A DNA stretch of 64,000 nucleotides from a virus (Duplodnaviria > Caudoviricetes), in the IMG/VR virus record IMGVR_UViG_3300020577_002562, positions 96,001-160,000 of that record; one strand, given 5' to 3'. Under the pieces are notes generated by a model. That model was not told the DNA's origin, ran no database searches, and saw only the letters and a list, made by a program, of their open reading frames with translations. A program made the position numbers and the translations under genes. This document shows positions 16,620 through 35,104 of the stretch, piece after piece (position 1 is the stretch's first letter; each line of letters begins with the position of its first letter).

Positions 16620-18983
16620 CTACTTAGAAGCAGCTCCTAAACCAGCCGGATTAGATGCTGGACCCCCGCCAATCGATCCAATATTCGACGGAACGGGATT
16701 ACTACTAAATCGTAATCCCGAAGCGGTCGGTACTGCAATGCCCATCGTGGAAGAACCTGCGCCAATACCAGCAGAAATTCCACGTTGACGTGGAGGTTTG
16801 ATGTGCTTCTTGCACCACTCATCGTCCAACAAGAACTTGGTACCGAGTGCCCATGCTCTCCAAATATCATCTGTAAGCCCAGGTGCCTTTTCGATTGTAC
16901 GGCCTCCATCGCGAATGGTAGCCAACTGAAGCAAGAAGTGTTCCACAGGTAGATACTGGAAACACTGTGGATAGTTGTCCTGCATCAACAGTATCTCTTG
17001 AAGAGGAATTCCAGAGGCTGGAATCCTGAATGACCGGTCCAGAATGTGATTCTGCACCAGTAGCATATCATCCCTCTTCAATGAGTATCGTTCCGCTGGA
17101 ATACCAAGAGCCTGTGACAAATCATGCAACAACTTGATGCTATTCCACTGATCAGCAAACACGTAGCACACGTTGAAAGCCTTAGCTAACGGAAGCAATA
17201 CATGCTCATAGACCAGAGAGAAGTTCACCACGGAGTTACCAATAGAGGGCGCAATCTCAAGCATCACATCTGTGATGACTTTGATAGGGTCTCTTCTATT
17301 AGGGTTGCGATGAGAGATGGTGCAGGTAAATGAGTTGTTAGACAAGCCTGCGTCGATGGTCATTACCGATGAGATAACCAGAGCCGGCGGATTGCATGCC
17401 ACTTTGGCGTAACGATACTTGACTCCGTGCCGTTCGACCTTATGGTAGTTGTACACCACTCTGTTAGGCACTTTGCCAGGCAGCGCCGATATTGCATCGT
17501 GATCCTGAATAAACGCAGAGTCTACGAGAGGTGGTTGTGCACCAAAGTCACGCATTGCCTTGGCTTCACTACTTTGGAAGTAGGAGTCCAGAGCTTTGCG
17601 GCTGAGTTTAGGGTGAATGTCCCAAGTAGCCAGATGCAACGCCAATATCTTCCGACTGTTGGCGTTGGACTTTACGTGACGCATCATCACGTCACGTCTA
17701 TGCTGAGGGCTAGAGCCTATGATGAACACGGCATTCGGAACATCGTAGTACCCGGATTTCACTCGGTCTTTCCAACCGACGCGCACGTTCAGCATGCTGT
17801 TGTCGAGTGAGGTATAGACTTCACTACCGTTCATGCGAACGGTCTGATCTTCCTCATTACCGTCAGAGAAAAATGCCCACTCGTCCAACAGACAGTTGTG
17901 AACCAGAATGCCGTTGGCAGAGAACATATGGATGTCCTCCACCTCGATGTCATATACGTCGTGCTCTCCTTCCAGTTCTTCGCTGCGCCACAGACGATCA
18001 CGGACGATGTGATTGTTGTCTCGCACCTGGTAGTCGAACGGATTGTCAAGTAGGACGCGAAATGCAGTTGTAGAGTTGCGGTGAATCTGAAGTGTACTGG
18101 GGCGTCGGACAGACAAAACACCAAGGCTCAGCAGCAGAATCTGAGTCTGCTGCATGCGCTTGTCTTCACCGAACAAGACAAAGCTATCCTGGAACAGCGC
18201 AGATAGATAGGCACTGACATGGATCAAAGATGACCGTAGAATCACCCATGGTACTTCGCCTCTAGGAAAGCCCCATTCGGATTCTGCGTATTCGTCATCT
18301 GCTAGCTGTGAGGCTAATTCGCTGGTCATGCGATGTCTAGTTCCATCCTTTTTTCGGAACTGGTCCAAGTTCTTTCTGGAAGCCCCGTTCGCACCGGCTA
18401 CAATGACCACATCGCTAGGTTTGATGTGCTGTGCTTGACGCCACACCATATCATTGTGCTCATCCGAACACATCACCAGATGAGCAGGAGTCAGATCCAA
18501 ACTGAACCCAAATGTGGTTGTCAAACGTATCAGCTTCTTCGCACCTGTACGCATAGCTCTAAGTACAGTAGCTGGAGCCCCAGCTACGCACACACGATTT
18601 TGGTCTGGTATGATACGTTGCATCTCTATGAGACCCAAGTCCGTTTGGACAAGTGCATCACCTCGAATGCATAGCCAACGTGTCTTACCACGCAGCAGCT
18701 TACGGTTTGGACCTGCTGGATACAGCATCAATTGCCGATGAGGATAGTGAAGCATCTGTGTCTGAAACTTCAGAAGCTCCTCGCCATTGCGATTACCCTC
18801 ATGCTTGAGCATGTCGTGATAGCCGCAATTATGTACATTCATGCCACCTGCGTAGTAGTTGTGCGTCCCTGCTACCTCGAAATCGTACACCTTGTGCTTA
18901 CTCAAGTCCGTTACCGACCTGACCTTAACCGCCTTGATAGTCTTACCATTAACGGTAATGATCTTACTTGATTCGGTTTCCAT
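16620..18983 (-). CDS. Terminase large subunit, C-terminal part (split-intein C half plus one cis intein)
   Basis: Begins with IntC (VYDFEV..HNYYAGGMNVHN/C). After intein removal reads LRGKTRWL-CLLDEWAFF (Walker B); nuclease motifs IDAG and DD. Confidence 0.85.
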   Translation of the reverse strand: METESSKIITVNGKTIKAVKVRSVTDLSKHKVYDFEVAGTHNYYAGGMNVHNCGYHDMLKHEGNRNGEELLKFQTQMLHYPHRQLMLYPAGPNRKLLRGKTRWLCIRGDALVQTDLGLIEMQRIIPDQNRVCVAGAPATVLRAMRTGAKKLIRLTTTFGFSLDLTPAHLVMCSDEHNDMVWRQAQHIKPSDVVIVAGANGASRKNLDQFRKKDGTRHRMTSELASQLADDEYAESEWGFPRGEVPWVILRSSLIHVSAYLSALFQDSFVLFGEDKRMQQTQILLLSLGVLSVRRPSTLQIHRNSTTAFRVLLDNPFDYQVRDNNHIVRDRLWRSEELEGEHDVYDIEVEDIHMFSANGILVHNCLLDEWAFFSDGNEEDQTVRMNGSEVYTSLDNSMLNVRVGWKDRVKSGYYDVPNAVFIIGSSPQHRRDVMMRHVKSNANSRKILALHLATWDIHPKLSRKALDSYFQSSEAKAMRDFGAQPPLVDSAFIQDHDAISALPGKVPNRVVYNYHKVERHGVKYRYAKVACNPPALVISSVMTIDAGLSNNSFTCTISHRNPNRRDPIKVITDVMLEIAPSIGNSVVNFSLVYEHVLLPLAKAFNVCYVFADQWNSIKLLHDLSQALGIPAERYSLKRDDMLLVQNHILDRSFRIPASGIPLQEILLMQDNYPQCFQYLPVEHFLLQLATIRDGGRTIEKAPGLTDDIWRAWALGTKFLLDDEWCKKHIKPPRQRGISAGIGAGSSTMGIAVPTASGLRFSSNPVPSNIGSIGGGPASNPAGLGAASK
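17895..18671 (-). mobile_element. Cis intein (259 aa) with degenerate LAGLIDADG remnant
   Basis: CIRGDALV block A, LTPAH block B, VYDIEV...NGILVHN/C end; YLSALF and LLLSLGV remnants. Confidence 0.85.
18828..18983 (-). mobile_element. Split intein C-fragment of terminase (52 aa)
   Basis: Blocks F/G ending VHN followed by Cys+1. Confidence 0.9.
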
Positions 18984-19845
18984 ATTTGTCCATTACTAAG
19001 AAGGAAAATTTGAAGCCTTGCGCTCGACACGCACGTCGTTTAGCTCGATTCACTTCCTTGCTTGCTTTGAGTGTGTAATCACTCTTGACCTCGTAGATTT
19101 TATTCCAACGAGGTACGTAAATGTCCGGATGGTATATCCTTCGCTTGCCATCAAAAACATATTCAATACTGGGCAATTGTTTGTCACCGATGCCGCAACG
19201 AATGTCTGATGGCTGTAGTCTCGTGTTCGACAAAAGCCACTCAATAGCCTGAGGCTCATAACCTTGGACTTGAACCATTCGCTGACCGAGTTTGATTCGT
19301 TTGCATTTATAGGCAGTAGCCAGATTTTTGTCGAACAATTCCTTACTCTGAAGTGCGTGAATCACTCCATATCGTTTACGCATTGTACGTCTAATCTTAC
19401 TCTGAATTTCAGTACGTTGCGTGGAGTATTCGACTCCGTACTTGCGTAAGTTGTATTGCTTAAGCTTCTCTTGAGAACACGGCGGACAGCCACTTCCTTT
19501 TCGCACATTGCCCAAGTATGGCGACCACTCGTGTTTGCACACTAAACATTTCACACGAGTGCGCGTGTTCATGTTAACGAACTCACCTACGCGCTTTATA
19601 TTCTGTTGTCGCAGAAACTTGTCTAGCTCATTCAGGTCGAAGCGTTTACTCTGACTTATGTTGCGATTCCGGGTACAGGCACATCCATATCTGAGCCAAT
19701 AACTGAAATGTTGGGAGGACTGCCGATCACAATCTTGGCAGCGCACTACCAGTTTGTACTGGTGCTGTGGGTCAACACCAACTACTAACAATGACGAACC
19801 GCTACTTTTCAGGTAGGACTTCACAATTTTTAGATTATCACTCAT
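18964..19845 (-). CDS. Free-standing homing endonuclease (Zn-ribbon repeats plus PD-(D/E)XK domain) between the terminase halves
   Basis: CLVCKHEW..GSGCPPC, KYGV repeats, QGYEPQA, HPDIY...EVKS; visibly more AT-rich than flanks. Start ATG 19845 (GTG 19854 is the alternative). Confidence 0.8.
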   Translation of the reverse strand: MSDNLKIVKSYLKSSGSSLLVVGVDPQHQYKLVVRCQDCDRQSSQHFSYWLRYGCACTRNRNISQSKRFDLNELDKFLRQQNIKRVGEFVNMNTRTRVKCLVCKHEWSPYLGNVRKGSGCPPCSQEKLKQYNLRKYGVEYSTQRTEIQSKIRRTMRKRYGVIHALQSKELFDKNLATAYKCKRIKLGQRMVQVQGYEPQAIEWLLSNTRLQPSDIRCGIGDKQLPSIEYVFDGKRRIYHPDIYVPRWNKIYEVKSDYTLKASKEVNRAKRRACRAQGFKFSFLVMDKYGNRIK

Positions 19846-19890
19846 GGTACTCACCGAATCACATACATCAAATTAGTCGGAGTACCATGA
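19842..19890 (-). promoter_or_regulatory. Start-codon-sequestering hairpin with CTAATTT in its loop
   Basis: TCATGGTACTC (19842-19852) and GAGTACCATGA (19880-19890) form a perfect 11-bp inverted repeat; motif at 19870-19876. Confidence 0.7.
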
Positions 19891-19895
19891 CATGC

Positions 19896-20891
19896 TTAAT
19901 CTTCTGTCACCACGTAATCATCTTCCGTTAGCAGATGGATTTCCTTCCACATAATAGCCATACCATCCGGTGTGAGAACGCGAATGCAGTGATCTCCTGT
20001 GGCGACCAGCTTCTTATCGTCTTCCAGAGTTATCTCCTTACAACTGCGCACGCCATTGTCAAAATGACACAGGACTTTGCTTGATCCTTCAAATGTTTTG
20101 ACCATATCACCCGGCTTTATCTGCTCGATTGGAACAGTATTGCCGTTCTCCAGTGTGATCGGTGTACCCTCAGCAATACAGAACCATTGACAGCCCTCAA
20201 TGTAAGTCTTGATCGGTAGCCACTGCTGCTCGTAGGCGTTTGCGAACGTCTGAGCTACTGCCGTACCGACCATAGTGGTTGGCTCAAGATCATACACCTC
20301 GTAGGGGCGTTGAAGCTTAATCATGCGATGCAACTGATAGACTGCGGCAGGCGCTTCAAACTGAGTCGTCTTACCTACTCGCTGGCCGGCTAGCAAGGCT
20401 AGCTCGTGGTACGGCATCATCTCTTTGGCACGCAATAGCTCTAGCCGCGTAGCTTTGCACTTTGGGCACTTGCCGTGTTTTAGCAGTTGGAAGTGCTCAG
20501 GGAATGCATCACTCTTGATCTTCAGTGGCACATCTAGAATGTTGCCTGTGTGGTACTTTGGATTGGAGCACCGTGGACAGATTTCGCCGAACAACATGGA
20601 CAACGCCCACAGTTGGCGTGCGAATGGGCGCAAACGCAAACCAGTGGGCGAAGTTGAGAACTCCCAGTAATTCGGGAATAGCTTAAAGTCACGGTCGTCG
20701 ATCCGCAGATCGCGAACCATCCGTGTGGTAGGATCGATTGCATCCGCTACCATACTCTCAAGATCTAACTCAAGATTCTGGTCTACAGCGAACGTTGTCT
20801 TGATCGGTGTGGGTGCTTCAACTTCACCAAACAACTCGTCGATGAACCCTCGCCTGTCTTTGAGCTTCACTTTGCAATCTCCTGAGGCCAC
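19896..20891 (-). CDS. Terminase large subunit, N-terminal part ending in the split-intein N half
   Basis: FARQ adenine-binding motif, AGQRVGKT Walker A, then WF/CIAEGTPI intein start. Confidence 0.85.
   Translation of the reverse strand: MASGDCKVKLKDRRGFIDELFGEVEAPTPIKTTFAVDQNLELDLESMVADAIDPTTRMVRDLRIDDRDFKLFPNYWEFSTSPTGLRLRPFARQLWALSMLFGEICPRCSNPKYHTGNILDVPLKIKSDAFPEHFQLLKHGKCPKCKATRLELLRAKEMMPYHELALLAGQRVGKTTQFEAPAAVYQLHRMIKLQRPYEVYDLEPTTMVGTAVAQTFANAYEQQWLPIKTYIEGCQWFCIAEGTPITLENGNTVPIEQIKPGDMVKTFEGSSKVLCHFDNGVRSCKEITLEDDKKLVATGDHCIRVLTPDGMAIMWKEIHLLTEDDYVVTED
19899..20180 (-). mobile_element. Split intein N-fragment of terminase (94 aa)
   Basis: CIAEGTPITLENG block A, ATGDH block B, then a stop with no C-terminal HN. 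Confidence 0.9.
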
Positions 20892-29153: not shown

Positions 29154-30116
29154 CTACCACTTGATTCCGATGGTTGGACTGTCGTCAACTACTCTACGCC
29201 CCTTGTTCATGTACTTCATGGCGACTTGTACCTGCTCTCGGTCGATCTTGAATCTCTCAGGCTTGTAGGTCTGCCAGAAGCAAGTGCGCAGACAGCCACG
29301 ACTAGGGCCGTAGTCCTCTATGAAATGCTTGATCAACGGTTGTTGCTTGCCGTCCACCACTGTCCGTATACGTGCAGTCTCTTGCGCCAGCTTAGGTGGA
29401 TTGGAAATCGGTATGACCTCGTAGATGGTGTCCCATCGCGGGATGTTCAAGCCGACTTGCACGATCCGTCGGATACCAACGATGATGCGAATGCGGCCGC
29501 TTCGCGCATCTTGCAGTATCTTAGGACGCTGCGTGTTCCGTTCGACCTGACCAGTGAATGCGGCAGCAATGTCGCGGTCTTTCCCAGTCATACGTCGGTA
29601 TGCCTTGTTCAGCACGTTGGTCAGCAGCATCGCGTGCTTCACTCGATCCACCGGGATGACGATTGACCGGTCGTGCTTGATAACGTCCTTCAGCGCGTGC
29701 TTGACTATCAGTGTGTTACGTTGCTCGTTGTTGGACAACCAAGTGATAGCACCCGGCCATGTCTTGTGACCGGCGTGCGTAACCCCAGTCTCTACGAACT
29801 GAACACTAGGCACCAGCGTATTGGCTTGCCCCTCGGCACGTACAGGACCGATCACCAACTGAGAGAGTATGATCTTGCCATCTTTGCGATCATACGTCCC
29901 CGTCAGTCCGATCATGTACAACGAGTTCAACTGAGCCACTACTTTGAGGTACTCATCCGCCGCAGTGTCGTGGCAATTATGAACGAGCACACCTTTGTCT
30001 GAGTCTGGGCCATAGACAAAGTAGTTGTGATGCTGCTCCACTCCTATATCGTACACATCTACAGGCGCATCCAGTTTGATATGCTCTACTGATGACACTC
30101 TCACTAATTTTGTCAT
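29154..30116 (-). CDS. SF2 (UvsW/XPB-like DExH) helicase, C-terminal part beginning with the split-intein C half
   Basis: VYDIGVEQHHNYF...VLVHN/CH, then GLTGT..RKDG (motif III), GLNIPRWD (V), QETARIR (VI). Confidence 0.9.
   Translation of the reverse strand: MTKLVRVSSVEHIKLDAPVDVYDIGVEQHHNYFVYGPDSDKGVLVHNCHDTAADEYLKVVAQLNSLYMIGLTGTYDRKDGKIILSQLVIGPVRAEGQANTLVPSVQFVETGVTHAGHKTWPGAITWLSNNEQRNTLIVKHALKDVIKHDRSIVIPVDRVKHAMLLTNVLNKAYRRMTGKDRDIAAAFTGQVERNTQRPKILQDARSGRIRIIVGIRRIVQVGLNIPRWDTIYEVIPISNPPKLAQETARIRTVVDGKQQPLIKHFIEDYGPSRGCLRTCFWQTYKPERFKIDREQVQVAMKYMNKGRRVVDDSPTIGIKW
29976..30116 (-). mobile_element. Split intein C-fragment of helicase (47 aa)
   Basis: Blocks F/G ending VHN, Cys+1. 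Confidence 0.9.
30104..30110 (+). promoter_or_regulatory. CTAATTT motif upstream of the antisense endonuclease
   Basis: 36 nt upstream of ATG 30147, overlapping the first codons of helicase IntC on the other strand. Confidence 0.5.
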
Positions 30117-30146
30117 ACTGGTGAATCATGTATTGGAGTTAAGGGC

Positions 30147-31175
30147 ATGTTACGTCAAGATCATCCGCGATTTCATCAAATGGTGTCCCGACATAGAGCC
30201 CTGTGCTCAGTAAGAAAGATAAAATTCACTGCCAAGATTGTTGACTTGAGCACTACACGTTATTTACATCGTTGTCACTGTGGTCATGCTTGGAAGCAAA
30301 CTATATCGAACTTTGTTGGCCGTACTGGATGTCCTGCTTGTGCGATGCGGCGTTTTCAACTAGCTGGAGCAGCTTCCGCGCGTGGAAAACCTGCGCATAC
30401 GAGACTAACAAAAGGGGAGTTTCTGAAGCGGCTTCCTAAAGGCTATCGTCTAATCGGATCTTACTCAGGACAACGCGAACTAGTCTCATTGAAATGCCCA
30501 CAAGGTCACATAAGACGAACTACAGCGGACAACGCCCATCGTTATGGCTGTGGTGTATGCTCGGGAGTTGAAGTTTCACTTGACTCCCACAACAAGCAAT
30601 TGGCTGCTCTGAATGACCGTGTTCGTTGCCTGCAGTATTTTGGGGCACGCACAGCATCCAGATACCATTGTCTACAGTGTAAGTTTCGCTGGTCTTGCAT
30701 CCCTACAAACATTTTGAAGACTAAACGATGTCATTGTCCGAGCTGTCAACCACCTGGCGTAACTGTCAGATGCGTCAAGCTTGGGCGTCGCAAAGTGCTT
30801 GTTCGTGGATACGAGCCACAAGCTCTAAACTATTTGATACAAGTGAAGGGGTACAAACCTAACCAGATTCGTACAGAGCTTGAGGGAACTGTCCCAAGAA
30901 TCAAAGTCAATGGGCGACTTCATAAACCCGACTTTTTCATCCCAAGCGATAACCGTCTGGTAGAAGTCAAGTCGATTTTCACTCTCGGACTCAACGGTGA
31001 GCTATATTTCAAAAGAGCATTCCAGAAGTTGAAGACTAACCACGCAAAAGCCCGGGAGGCAGGGTACCGATACAACTTGCTAGTTTTTCTCAAAGACGGA
31101 ACGCGAGTAGACATACCTAGTAAGTGGTATCTATTGAGCACTGAACAAATGCGACAGTTACTTCGACAACAATAG
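30147..31175 (+). CDS. Free-standing homing endonuclease (Zn-ribbon repeats plus PD-(D/E)XK) between the helicase halves, antisense
   Basis: Three Cys/His ribbons; VRGYEPQAL, KPDFFI..EVKS; paralogue of 18964 and 34265. Confidence 0.8.
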   Translation: MLRQDHPRFHQMVSRHRALCSVRKIKFTAKIVDLSTTRYLHRCHCGHAWKQTISNFVGRTGCPACAMRRFQLAGAASARGKPAHTRLTKGEFLKRLPKGYRLIGSYSGQRELVSLKCPQGHIRRTTADNAHRYGCGVCSGVEVSLDSHNKQLAALNDRVRCLQYFGARTASRYHCLQCKFRWSCIPTNILKTKRCHCPSCQPPGVTVRCVKLGRRKVLVRGYEPQALNYLIQVKGYKPNQIRTELEGTVPRIKVNGRLHKPDFFIPSDNRLVEVKSIFTLGLNGELYFKRAFQKLKTNHAKAREAGYRYNLLVFLKDGTRVDIPSKWYLLSTEQMRQLLRQQ

Positions 31176-32174
31176 CTCGTCATTTACCGTTAACTCCGAT
31201 GCCTTCACGTAATCTTGTCTAGTAACCGACCAAAACTTGTGGTTCGGAGTGCACAGAAGTTCTCTACCATCAATAGTGACGCGCACGAGATGGGTAACAG
31301 CTTTCTTTGTGAAGCTCTCTATGGGTTTGAATTCTCGTTTCCCAGATTGATGATTGAAGCACTCGACAGTCGTCTTGTAGCCGCTTTCTACAATATCACC
31401 TAAAGACATCAGCCCATTTTTGGTCTTTACTCTATGACCATAGGTGAAGCATTCATCTATGATGATGGTCCCAAAGTGATCCTTGATCTGTTCAAGCTTC
31501 TTCTTGCCACCAGCAGACAAGAACGTTTGATACGTACACAGCACGATGTCATACTTCAGCATATCCTTGACATCAGTGACTATGCCAGCGATCTTGCGTC
31601 CGTTGAACTTCTCTAGGTCGTCAATGTTGGTTACTGCATCCGCACCTTTGAGCGACAGCATGAACTGGCGCAACCAATCGATCTGGGCCGCAATGATCAG
31701 CGTGCGATACCCGATCTTGATCGAAGCAGCTATCGCCATCACTGTCTTGCCCGAACGCGGCGGAGACAGTAAGACACCCCGCTTCTTCTTGATGATCGTG
31801 CGTACAGGATCGCGTTGATTCTTCCAGAGCTTGCCTGTGAATTCGATGGCGTGACGAAACCGCTTGTATTCGGAAGCAGGCTTCTCTCTAGTGACAGTGA
31901 TCGGCTTACCAACTACTTCCTTGACGATTGACGGACGTCCCAACGGTAAACCAAGCATGCCATCTCGTTTGGTCCACAAGTGGTAAGTGCCCCGGAACTC
32001 AGGGCATTCGTCGCAGATGTCACAGTGACGCTCTTCTAGGTACTCACATTTGTTGCATGCTTTCTCGTTGTAGATGCGGATAGTCAGGTGTTTTTTGGCA
32101 CGCTCTACATTCTGCTTCGTAGCTGGCACCCACAGCTTGGAATTACGTACCGCCTCAACTGCTTGAGTCTTCAT
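31158..32174 (-). CDS. SF2 helicase, N-terminal part ending in the split-intein N half
   Basis: SPPRSGKT Walker A, TYQT, IIIDE/CFTYGHRV intein start. Confidence 0.9.
   Translation of the reverse strand: MKTQAVEAVRNSKLWVPATKQNVERAKKHLTIRIYNEKACNKCEYLEERHCDICDECPEFRGTYHLWTKRDGMLGLPLGRPSIVKEVVGKPITVTREKPASEYKRFRHAIEFTGKLWKNQRDPVRTIIKKKRGVLLSPPRSGKTVMAIAASIKIGYRTLIIAAQIDWLRQFMLSLKGADAVTNIDDLEKFNGRKIAGIVTDVKDMLKYDIVLCTYQTFLSAGGKKKLEQIKDHFGTIIIDECFTYGHRVKTKNGLMSLGDIVESGYKTTVECFNHQSGKREFKPIESFTKKAVTHLVRVTIDGRELLCTPNHKFWSVTRQDYVKASELTVNDELLLSK
31161..31451 (-). mobile_element. Split intein N-fragment of helicase (97 aa)
   Basis: CFTYGHRVKT block A, CTPNHKFW block B, YVKASEL..D.L end then stop. Confidence 0.9.
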
Positions 32175-34234: not shown

Positions 34235-34241
34235 CTAATTT
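34235..34241 (+). promoter_or_regulatory. CTAATTT motif upstream of the third endonuclease
   Basis: 23 nt upstream of ATG 34265, GGAG RBS between. Confidence 0.55.
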
Positions 34242-34264: not shown

Positions 34265-35104
34265 ATGCCTCCAGTTTTGCGTTCACAAGTTGAAGTTACT
34301 CGTCTACTAAATAGTAACAATCCAACTATACGATCTATATCCGAGTATAGAGGATGTAGAAGTGAAGGACAATTCGAGTGCTTAGAGTGTAAGCATGTTT
34401 GGTCAGCTCAATGGAGACGCATAATACAAGGCGCAACAAAATGTCCTCGATGCGTATCTGTAAGACTTGGAGGCAAAAACAAGAAAACGCACCAAGTCTA
34501 TTGTGAAGAACTTGCGTTGGTCGATCCTTCTATCCAGCCTCTAGAAAAATACGTCAATAGCTACACGGCTATTTTGCATAGACATGAGTGTGGGCATGAG
34601 TGGAGACTAATGCCGTTAAACTCACTCCGCGGTAGAGGCTGTCCTAAGTGTAAGCTTCGTTTGCGCACCGTCAAATTGGGGGCCCGAAAGGTTAACGTGC
34701 GTGGATATGAAGCCATAGCTTTAAAGTGGCTTGTTCGTAACAAGAAAGTCAAACCGTCTGAAATACAAACACACAACGAGAAAACGGTACCTAATTTTCT
34801 ATATCACCACAGAGGTAGGCGAACATATTTCCCAGACTTTTACATACCCAAAACGAATTGTATAGTCGAAGTCAAGTCTTTATCAACCGTAGGCATTCTT
34901 GGTAACTTCTTTAATCTTAAACCTAGAACTCTGTTCTCGCTCACACAAGCCAAGGCTAAAGCTGTACTGAACGCAGGCTATCGTTTTAGACTATTGATCA
35001 TGGGCAGCGATGGCAATAGAATACCGACTCCGAAAGGATGGCTTCGTATGACACACAAAGAATTTTGCGCGTCTATCGGACCTGAGCATACCAGCAAACA
35101 TTAA
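34265..35104 (+). CDS. Free-standing intergenic homing endonuclease (Zn-ribbon plus PD-(D/E)XK)
   Basis: CLECKHVW..KCPRC, VRGYEAIAL, FPDFYI..EVKS; AT-rich, antisense to neighbours. Confidence 0.8.
   Translation: MPPVLRSQVEVTRLLNSNNPTIRSISEYRGCRSEGQFECLECKHVWSAQWRRIIQGATKCPRCVSVRLGGKNKKTHQVYCEELALVDPSIQPLEKYVNSYTAILHRHECGHEWRLMPLNSLRGRGCPKCKLRLRTVKLGARKVNVRGYEAIALKWLVRNKKVKPSEIQTHNEKTVPNFLYHHRGRRTYFPDFYIPKTNCIVEVKSLSTVGILGNFFNLKPRTLFSLTQAKAKAVLNAGYRFRLLIMGSDGNRIPTPKGWLRMTHKEFCASIGPEHTSKH

Follow-up and report, generated by a model that had tools for sequence, protein, structure and literature searches.

Fractured genes, in which the two halves of a split intein lie on neighbouring genes around a free-standing endonuclease gene, were described in 2009 by Dassa, London, Stoddard, Schueler-Furman and Pietrokovski (PMC2677866), who reported gp41-1, NrdJ-1, IMPDH-1 and others and listed phage terminase among the hosts. 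The endonucleases in those genes are of the GIY-YIG or 'Vsr-like' type (PMC2677866); the latter class was subsequently given the name EDxHD, for its catalytic residues Glu, Asp, His and Asp, with I-Bth0305I as the prototype (PMC3239194, PDB 3R3P). Inteins are also known in the terminase large subunit (TerL) of mycobacteriophages, where TerL1-e occupies Walker B and TerL1-a/b the P-loop (Kelley et al. 2016, PMC5050341). Here, we analysed a TerL locus in a stretch of 64,000 nucleotides (hereafter the window), which is positions 96,001 to 160,000 of the IMG/VR virus record IMGVR_UViG_3300020577_002562 (Duplodnaviria; Caudoviricetes), a linear record of 187 kb estimated to be 75% complete. The locus is very probably a fractured TerL gene of an uncultured, PaBG/Yoloswag-like large phage, in which a DUF7487 gene invaded a mini-intein and in which trans-splicing and cis-splicing restore TerL. 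This kind of arrangement has been known since 2009, and the window holds a well-supported new example of it.

Three co-oriented open reading frames (ORFs) on the minus strand occupy positions 16620-20891 of the window. The TerL-N gene (19896-20891, 331 amino acids) comprises a 237-residue N-extein ending in ...GCQWF (20181-20891), with Zn-ribbon CxxC pairs and the Walker A motif GQRVGKT, followed by a 94-residue N-terminal intein half (IntN; 19899-20180; CIAEG...VVTED and then the stop) that carries Cys1 and a block B T-G-D-H and has a net charge of -9. The free-standing endonuclease gene (18964-19845) encodes 293 amino acids from its ATG, or 296 from a GTG at 19854. The TerL-C gene (16620-18983, 787 amino acids) starts with a 52-residue C-terminal intein half (IntC; 18828-18983; METESS...GGMNVHN, net charge +2) with blocks F and G and then the +1 Cys. 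It continues with an extein segment, also of 52 residues (18672-18827; CGYHD...TRWL), a 259-residue cis intein directly before Walker B (17895-18671; CIRGD...ILVHN, +1 Cys in CLLDEW), and a C-extein of 424 residues plus stop (16620-17894), which starts at Walker B and includes the remaining ATPase part and the nuclease domain. The original prediction, made from the letters alone, had proposed a Walker A gene ending in a 94-residue IntN, a separate endonuclease gene after it, and a C-gene laid out as 52 residues of IntC, 52 of extein and 259 of cis intein before Walker B. The ORFs and the segment lengths, computed by script for both TerL genes, agree with it to the residue, and the endonuclease gene lies in a frame of its own and matches Pfam DUF7487 (E=3.6e-30). 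It had also taken both halves for TerL, and PHROG 17415, 'terminase large subunit', matches each of them (TerL-N, E=4.9e-44; TerL-C, E=1.4e-104); the precedent that it cited for the layout is the work of Dassa et al.

TerL-N and TerL-C lie on one strand in the identical frame, with 912 nt between them, and all ORFs of the locus are intact. The endonuclease gene has its own start codon. Between the TerL-N stop and the TerL-C ATG the TerL frame contains more than 20 stop codons, and read-through or a frameshift fusion of the three ORFs is therefore excluded. The IntN-endonuclease-IntC cassette has a lower GC content (44-47%) than the exteins (49-52%) and the cis intein (50%); for IntN the value is 46.5%, as compared with 52% for the N-extein.

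Splicing in silico, which the original prediction had put forward as its check, gave a product of 237+52+424 = 713 residues that is colinear with the intein-free TerLs of PaBG (720 residues) and Voja-6 (793 residues), with zero gaps at both junctions. The first junction, QWF/CGYHDML, aligns with QWFREYHGML and GWFKEYNALL, and the second, TRWL/CLLDEW, with TRYFTAIDEI and TRIWTGTDEI, in these two TerLs. The 52-residue extein segment between the inteins also aligns without gaps to PaBG, Voja-6, PhiXhv-12 and P0025 (a protein cluster representative, see below). Thus, as in the genes of Dassa et al., adjacent co-oriented ORFs stand in the right order and end or begin with IntN and IntC, an endonuclease gene lies between them, and the joined exteins are colinear with their relatives (PaBG, Voja-6, PhiXhv-12 and P0025).

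The product has the features of a terminase large subunit, namely a Walker A/B ATPase with a C-terminal domain, similarity to TerL and a place beside the portal gene. TerL-N contributes Walker A (GQRVGKT), and Walker B (LLDE) comes immediately after the cis intein; Walker A residues G169, Q170, R171, G173 and K174 are invariant in 16 N-halves. A tblastn search with the C-extein found TerL in 95 phage records at 33-36% identity, and among the matches listed nearly all the genomes are of about 200-270 kb (PaBG, Yoloswag, the Dickeya JA phages, Pseudomonas putida Voja-6 and relatives, Xanthomonas PhiXhv-12). The locus shares with PaBG the order DnaB-like helicase, hypothetical gene, TerL, small gene, portal. 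No second copy of TerL was found across the 187-kb record. Upstream of Walker A, the CxxC pairs C105/C108 and C142/C145 (window 20400-20600, TerL-N residues about 105-145) form a Zn-ribbon-like insert. Both pairs are invariant in all 16 N-halves and also occur in intein-free relatives, and this is an unusual trait of the TerL lineage.

The split intein retains the residues of a class 1 intein. IntN matches the Pfam families Hint, Vint and Intein_splicing below threshold, and the TerL-C gene matches Intein_splicing with E=1.5e-21. Across 16 N-halves of 34-49% identity, C238 (Cys1) and the block B TxxH residues T298 and H301 do not vary. Among 10 relatives, either IntC or contiguous, the IntC residues V32, D34, E36, V37, H41, A45, N52 and C53 (the +1 Cys) are invariant, and H51 nearly so. 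Cys1, TxxH, the block F Asp/His, the terminal Asn and the +1 Cys are thus all in place. IntN is acidic in all seven loci compared (-5 to -12), with IntC nearly neutral or mildly basic (+3 to -3). When IntN with 10 extein residues was modelled together with IntC with 10 extein residues, the interface score ipSAE was 0.77 (0.00 in the highest-scoring of three controls), with at least 91% contact agreement between runs and a partner predicted local distance difference test score (pLDDT) of 73. The mark used for ipSAE is reached by 58 of 80 solved complexes and by 2 of 110 mismatched pairs; because split-intein complexes have already been solved, such a pass may reflect likeness to known complexes and is no proof of binding. 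From the intact catalytic motifs, their conservation and the complex prediction, we infer that both trans-splicing and cis-splicing take place.

The cis intein at Walker B matches Pfam Intein_splicing above the cut-off (E=6.9e-16) and has the features of a contiguous class 1 intein: C1, TPAH, a terminal HN and a +1 Cys, with the host protein continuing in frame. Its nearest relative is an intein at the equivalent site of P0025 (44% identity), and larger inteins with LAGLIDADG occupy the same site in P0064 and P0094. An intact LAGLIDADG domain was considered and rejected for the window's element, which has a single degenerate motif: scanning its centre against Pfam gave no LAGLIDADG or other family even at E<=10, and BLAST against the LAGLIDADG region of P0064 gave nothing. 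In a single comparison with the second LAGLIDADG region of another P0025 intein, LSALFQDSF aligned over LRGLFDGDG (E=0.001), and the centre is probably the decayed half of a LAGLIDADG endonuclease domain, a relic. When the cis intein, or IntC together with the 52-residue extein, was used as the query in word-index searches, essentially only the window's own protein came back. Residues 289-975 of P0025 (1402 residues) consist of two inteins back to back at Walker B with zero extein residues between them (...VVHN/CVDED......VISN/SAVDEW), the first homologous to the window's 259-residue intein and the second a full LAGLIDADG intein. The cultured phage PhiXhv-12 (PV764601.1; L001:679-4260) has a 1193-residue 'terminase large subunit' with a large LAGLIDADG-type intein directly before Walker A (borders ...GYA/CLTGDT......VVHN/CVGQRAGKS), which is not annotated as an intein.

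The endonuclease matches Pfam DUF7487 with 106 bits against a gathering cut-off of 27, and TnsA-like N at E=1.5e-4, below the cut-off of that family. It is built of N-terminal Zn-ribbon modules, KYGV-type repeats and a C-terminal PD-(D/E)xK catalytic domain. Y196, E197, P240, D241, E252, K254, T258 and G277 are invariant in an alignment of 19 sequences of the family, and E197, D241, E252 and K254 are the predicted catalytic residues, in the canonical E...PD...ExK constellation. The AlphaFold2 model (pLDDT 90.7) places them on a restriction-endonuclease-like fold, consistent with the TnsA-like part of the PD-(D/E)xK superfamily: fold matches of the C-terminal domain (residues ~165-293) by VIA were TnsA (Z=9.1, root-mean-square deviation 3.2 Å over 113 residues), Vsr (Z=6.2) and I-Bth0305I (Z=5.7). 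Foldseek ranked I-Bth0305I first (probability 0.97, E=0.026), with nothing in the PDB at E<=0.001. Against PDB sequences the family profile gave two chance-level rows only and missed 3R3P and Vsr (1CW0) at E<=10. An EDxHD or Vsr-like assignment was rejected. Since DUF7487 has no conserved His or second, later Asp and its profile does not match 3R3P or Vsr, we assign it to a separate family within the same fold superfamily. No mention of DUF7487 was found in the papers searched. The N-terminal parts of DUF7487 proteins vary in the number of Zn-ribbon modules, as would be expected of modular DNA-binding arms.

The genome contains three DUF7487 copies, two of which sit inside split inteins. The second fractured gene (29154-32174) encodes a superfamily 2 (SF2) helicase. 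Its N-half (31158-32174, minus strand) ends in ...IIIDE and then IntN, and its C-half (29154-30116, minus strand) starts with an IntC ending in VLVHN, followed by CHD; the second DUF7487 gene (30147-31175, plus strand) lies between them on the opposite strand. The third copy (34265-35104, plus strand) stands free between unrelated genes, with a CTAATTT motif at 34235-34241.

This motif is one of the candidate control elements around the endonuclease genes. An 11-bp perfect inverted repeat, TCATGGTACTC / GAGTACCATGA, spans 19842-19890 on the minus strand (arms at 19880-19890 and 19842-19852), so placed that the leader pairs with the GGTGAG Shine-Dalgarno region and the endonuclease ATG in the 3' arm. 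The predicted RNA fold has -18.7 kcal/mol (z=-2.2). A hairpin or control element thus lies upstream of the endonuclease start, as in the genes of Dassa et al. Among the related loci (described below), hairpins were found before the endonuclease gene in L005 (z=-5.4), L010 and L011, and in L009 before an extra gene just downstream of TerL-N; none was found before the endonuclease gene in L007. The extra gene of L009 (L009:2187-2951, 254 residues) lies between TerL-N and a shortened DUF7487 gene (196 residues), and it is the extra gene that is preceded by both CTAATTT and the hairpin.

CTAATTT itself lies within the hairpin loop (19870-19876). Expected 3.6 times in the window, it was found 10 times (1121, 5648, 16595, 19870, 26592, 30104, 34235, 34791, 54999 and 59650), a count that none of 100 shuffles reached, and is usually preceded by A/G-C. 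Each of the three DUF7487 genes has a copy 24-37 nt ahead of its start, and another copy precedes the small gene after TerL-C by 25 nt. In L005 (4969, 7799), L007 (4978, 7473) and L009 (2144, 6698) the motif is found in both equivalent places, the first of them in L009 being before the extra gene, and in L010 (6116) before the nuclease gene. Wherever it was measured, in the window or in the related loci, the distance to the start is 16-39 nt. We conclude that CTAATTT looks like a conserved promoter-like element of this phage group. A scan for sigma-70 promoters and terminators gave counts no higher than in shuffled sequences. The endonuclease stop overlaps the TerL-C start by 20 nt, and overlap or close abutment of these two genes is the rule in the related loci. 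Because TerL-C starts within the 3' end of the endonuclease gene and has a weak Shine-Dalgarno sequence, it is probably translationally coupled to that gene.

Related sequences were collected with phmmer, using TerL-N against 1.84 billion cluster representatives (50% identity) and sorting the best 150 matches by BLAST. Thirty-three of these 150, about a fifth, are N-halves ending in an IntN of the window's type, with a conserved tail of the ...LTEDDYVVVE type. In 98 of the 150 the split-intein site is empty. One of these is P0025, at 51% identity the closest full-length relative, which reads ...CKWF-NEIADFLKYHEN... and has the same 52-residue stretch. Three representatives (P0030, P0041 and P0061) carry a contiguous IntN+IntC mini-intein at the site or no more than 4 residues away, P0041 reading straight across the cassette position (...VVID-GVEVK...), and P0048 has a longer contiguous intein at the site. 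The insertion point shifts slightly among relatives: the mini-intein of P0061 lies 4 residues upstream of the window's site and the IntN of P0049 4 residues downstream. Thirteen of the 33 N-halves have 508-1054 residues, more than 150 beyond the plain full-length N-halves (302-388 residues). We read this extra length as further cis inteins, on the basis of the one N-half that was checked (P0028, the N-half of L007), where one is present.

Genomic context was retrieved for six independent contig types (L005/L006, L007, L009, L010, L011 and L012). The order TerL-N, DUF7487 gene, TerL-C is established in L005/L006 (contigs of 216 kb and 25 kb), L007, L009, L010 and L011, and the fractured layout is therefore not special to the window's phage. 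As in the window, L009 and L010 have a cis intein at Walker B in addition to the split intein, and L007 has a LAGLIDADG intein at Walker A. In L012 (L012:342-3944) the same split-intein family fractures TerL at Walker B, with the DUF7487 gene antisense. Pairwise identities between loci are 43-57% for IntN, 32-57% for IntC, 40-55% for the nuclease catalytic domain and 24-53% for the exteins; since they are so similar, the cassette looks old, without sign of recent transfer. The 6-kb region had no megablast match among 50,697 phage records, and tblastn with IntN alone against the phage record collection gave weak matches to UvsX/RecA inteins of T4-like phages and none in TerL; thus, no cultured phage with this split intein was found in that collection. 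A search of IMG/VR for related loci with the C-extein found nothing.

Taken together, these data fit a sequence of events that would start from a TerL with a class 1 mini-intein between Walker A and Walker B. A free-standing gene of the DUF7487 PD-(D/E)xK homing type would have invaded the mini-intein at the usual position of an endonuclease domain, leaving IntN and IntC on separate genes. Its nuclease probably spread the cassette at one time through cleavage of alleles with a mini-intein or an empty site. TerL-N and TerL-C would be made as separate chains, and the acidic 94-residue IntN and the 52-residue IntC would associate into one Hint fold. By the class 1 pathway, Cys1 would form the thioester, the +1 Cys of TerL-C would take over the N-extein and Asn52 would cyclise, with formation of the QWF-CGY bond. 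Independently, the 259-residue cis intein would excise itself and join TRWL to CLLDEW, restoring Walker B. The predicted outcome is a 713-residue TerL whose ATPase would be complete only after both splicing events.

Several points weigh against this scheme. The AlphaFold2 model of the cis intein (pLDDT 42, from a 2-row alignment) is unusable, so that the fold of this element and its LAGLIDADG relic are read from the sequence. The hairpin before the endonuclease gene rises only modestly above shuffled sequence, its geometry varies by locus and L007 has none. The like identities of intein, endonuclease and exteins give no sign of recent homing, which leaves the mobility of the nuclease as our inference, and splicing, packaging and endonuclease activity are predictions for a phage seen as a metagenomic contig. 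That this one contig, with its estimated completeness of 75%, carries a dead or decaying TerL, or that a contiguous, endonuclease-containing intein looks split through an assembly or frameshift artefact, is nevertheless extremely improbable: the three-gene layout recurs in six other independent contig types from different samples, one of them with the endonuclease antisense, the nuclease gene uses a separate frame and comes with a start codon, Shine-Dalgarno sequence and promoter-like motif of its own, and the intact ORFs, separated by all those stops, encode the only TerL in the record. We also regard it as unlikely that the two halves work as a non-covalent two-chain enzyme, with the intein halves merely holding them together or with splicing lost. 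Split-intein halves do bind tightly, the complex prediction speaks for association and not for chemistry, and Walker A and Walker B could in principle meet without ligation. However, every catalytic residue of the split intein is invariant at 34-49% identity, which a module kept for dimerisation alone would hardly require, and a Hint domain of about 146 residues in the ATPase core together with an unspliced cis intein would probably block the active site.

A further proposal sees the fracture as co-opted for timing, with TerL-C coupled to an endonuclease gene that has its own, perhaps late, promoter, so that active terminase would appear at a set stage of infection. The CTAATTT motifs in the window, L005, L007 and L009, which precede the small head-module gene and the endonuclease gene (the extra gene in the case of L009), the hairpin over the endonuclease ribosome-binding site, the TerL-C ATG 20 nt inside the endonuclease gene with its weak Shine-Dalgarno sequence, and the apparent age and stability of the arrangement would all suit such a device. 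Yet a promoter role of CTAATTT, and any timing, are putative, the hairpin geometry differs among the loci, Dassa et al. (PMC2677866) explain the same features as selfish control elements of the endonuclease, and 98 of the 150 relatives do without the fracture; we therefore consider this proposal very unlikely. The preferred reading remains that of a mini-intein broken by the DUF7487 gene, with TerL restored by one trans-splicing and one cis-splicing event.

Beyond this locus, we see about equal reason to accept and to doubt a wider proposal. DUF7487 would be an undescribed family of canonical PD-(D/E)xK homing endonucleases specialised in invading mini-inteins and so in making split inteins, here having fractured TerL at two ATPase sites as well as the SF2 helicase. 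The trans-spliced terminase would have been inherited stably and for long (33 of the 150 closest clusters) and would not be a short-lived parasitic state, and a single lineage would hold all the stages of Dassa et al.: empty site, mini-intein, fractured gene, site switch and antisense endonuclease.

The combination of cis inteins and a split intein in one gene is already known from dnaE of Trichodesmium. Compared with the fractured genes of 2009 (PMC2677866), the window shares the two co-oriented neighbouring ORFs, the first ending in IntN and the second starting with IntC, the free-standing endonuclease gene in its own frame between them, the hairpin or control elements before it, and the phage or metagenome setting. 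The invasion model of that study, in which an endonuclease gene enters a mini-intein, fits the empty, contiguous and fractured alleles among the TerL relatives. The window differs in having a DUF7487 protein with E...PD...ExK in place of the GIY-YIG or EDxHD enzymes reported there, and in bearing a second, cis intein. AceL-TerL and GOS-TerL (PMC11766414) are likewise naturally split TerL inteins of phages from metagenomes, with Cys at +1. They are atypically split, with an IntN of 25-37 and an IntC of 104-115 residues, whereas the window's intein has the canonical 94/52 split, and an assignment to their type was rejected.

The mycobacteriophage TerL inteins (PMC5050341) cluster at ATPase motifs, as do the cis inteins found here, which lie at Walker B in the window and at Walker A in L007, P0041 and PhiXhv-12. 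Their hosts belong to the terminase_1 and terminase_6 families, all are contiguous and several have active endonuclease domains, while the endonuclease region of the window's cis intein looks decayed. I-Bth0305I (PMC3239194) is a homing nuclease of phages that shares with the DUF7487 protein a modular build and a C-terminal catalytic domain of the restriction-endonuclease type, but the His and second Asp of EDxHD are not conserved in DUF7487 and TnsA is the better structural match (Z=9.1). In the jumbo phage vB_PaeM_MIJ3 (PMC6892783) a split PolB intein accompanies an HNH gene, so that host gene, intein and endonuclease family all differ from those of the window.

Against this background, the new elements are a canonically split TerL intein family that is widespread in PaBG-like large phages from metagenomes and, by the searches made, absent from 50,697 deposited phage genomes, its partnership with a DUF7487 PD-(D/E)xK nuclease, and the recurrence of trans and cis inteins together, 52 residues apart. 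The natural repertoire gains a canonically split TerL intein with an acidic 94-residue IntN, a 52-residue IntC, Cys1 and a +1 Cys, and dozens of diverged natural variants, together with the second, differently charged split intein of the same genome, provide raw material for orthogonal protein-ligation tools. Pfam DUF7487 gains a functional context as an intein-associated free-standing nuclease, and the lineage allows a comparative-genomic test of how endonuclease genes break genes. Finally, in addition to the described fractured genes, the locus would offer an essential packaging motor with an ATPase core that comes together only once two predicted protein-splicing events have taken place.

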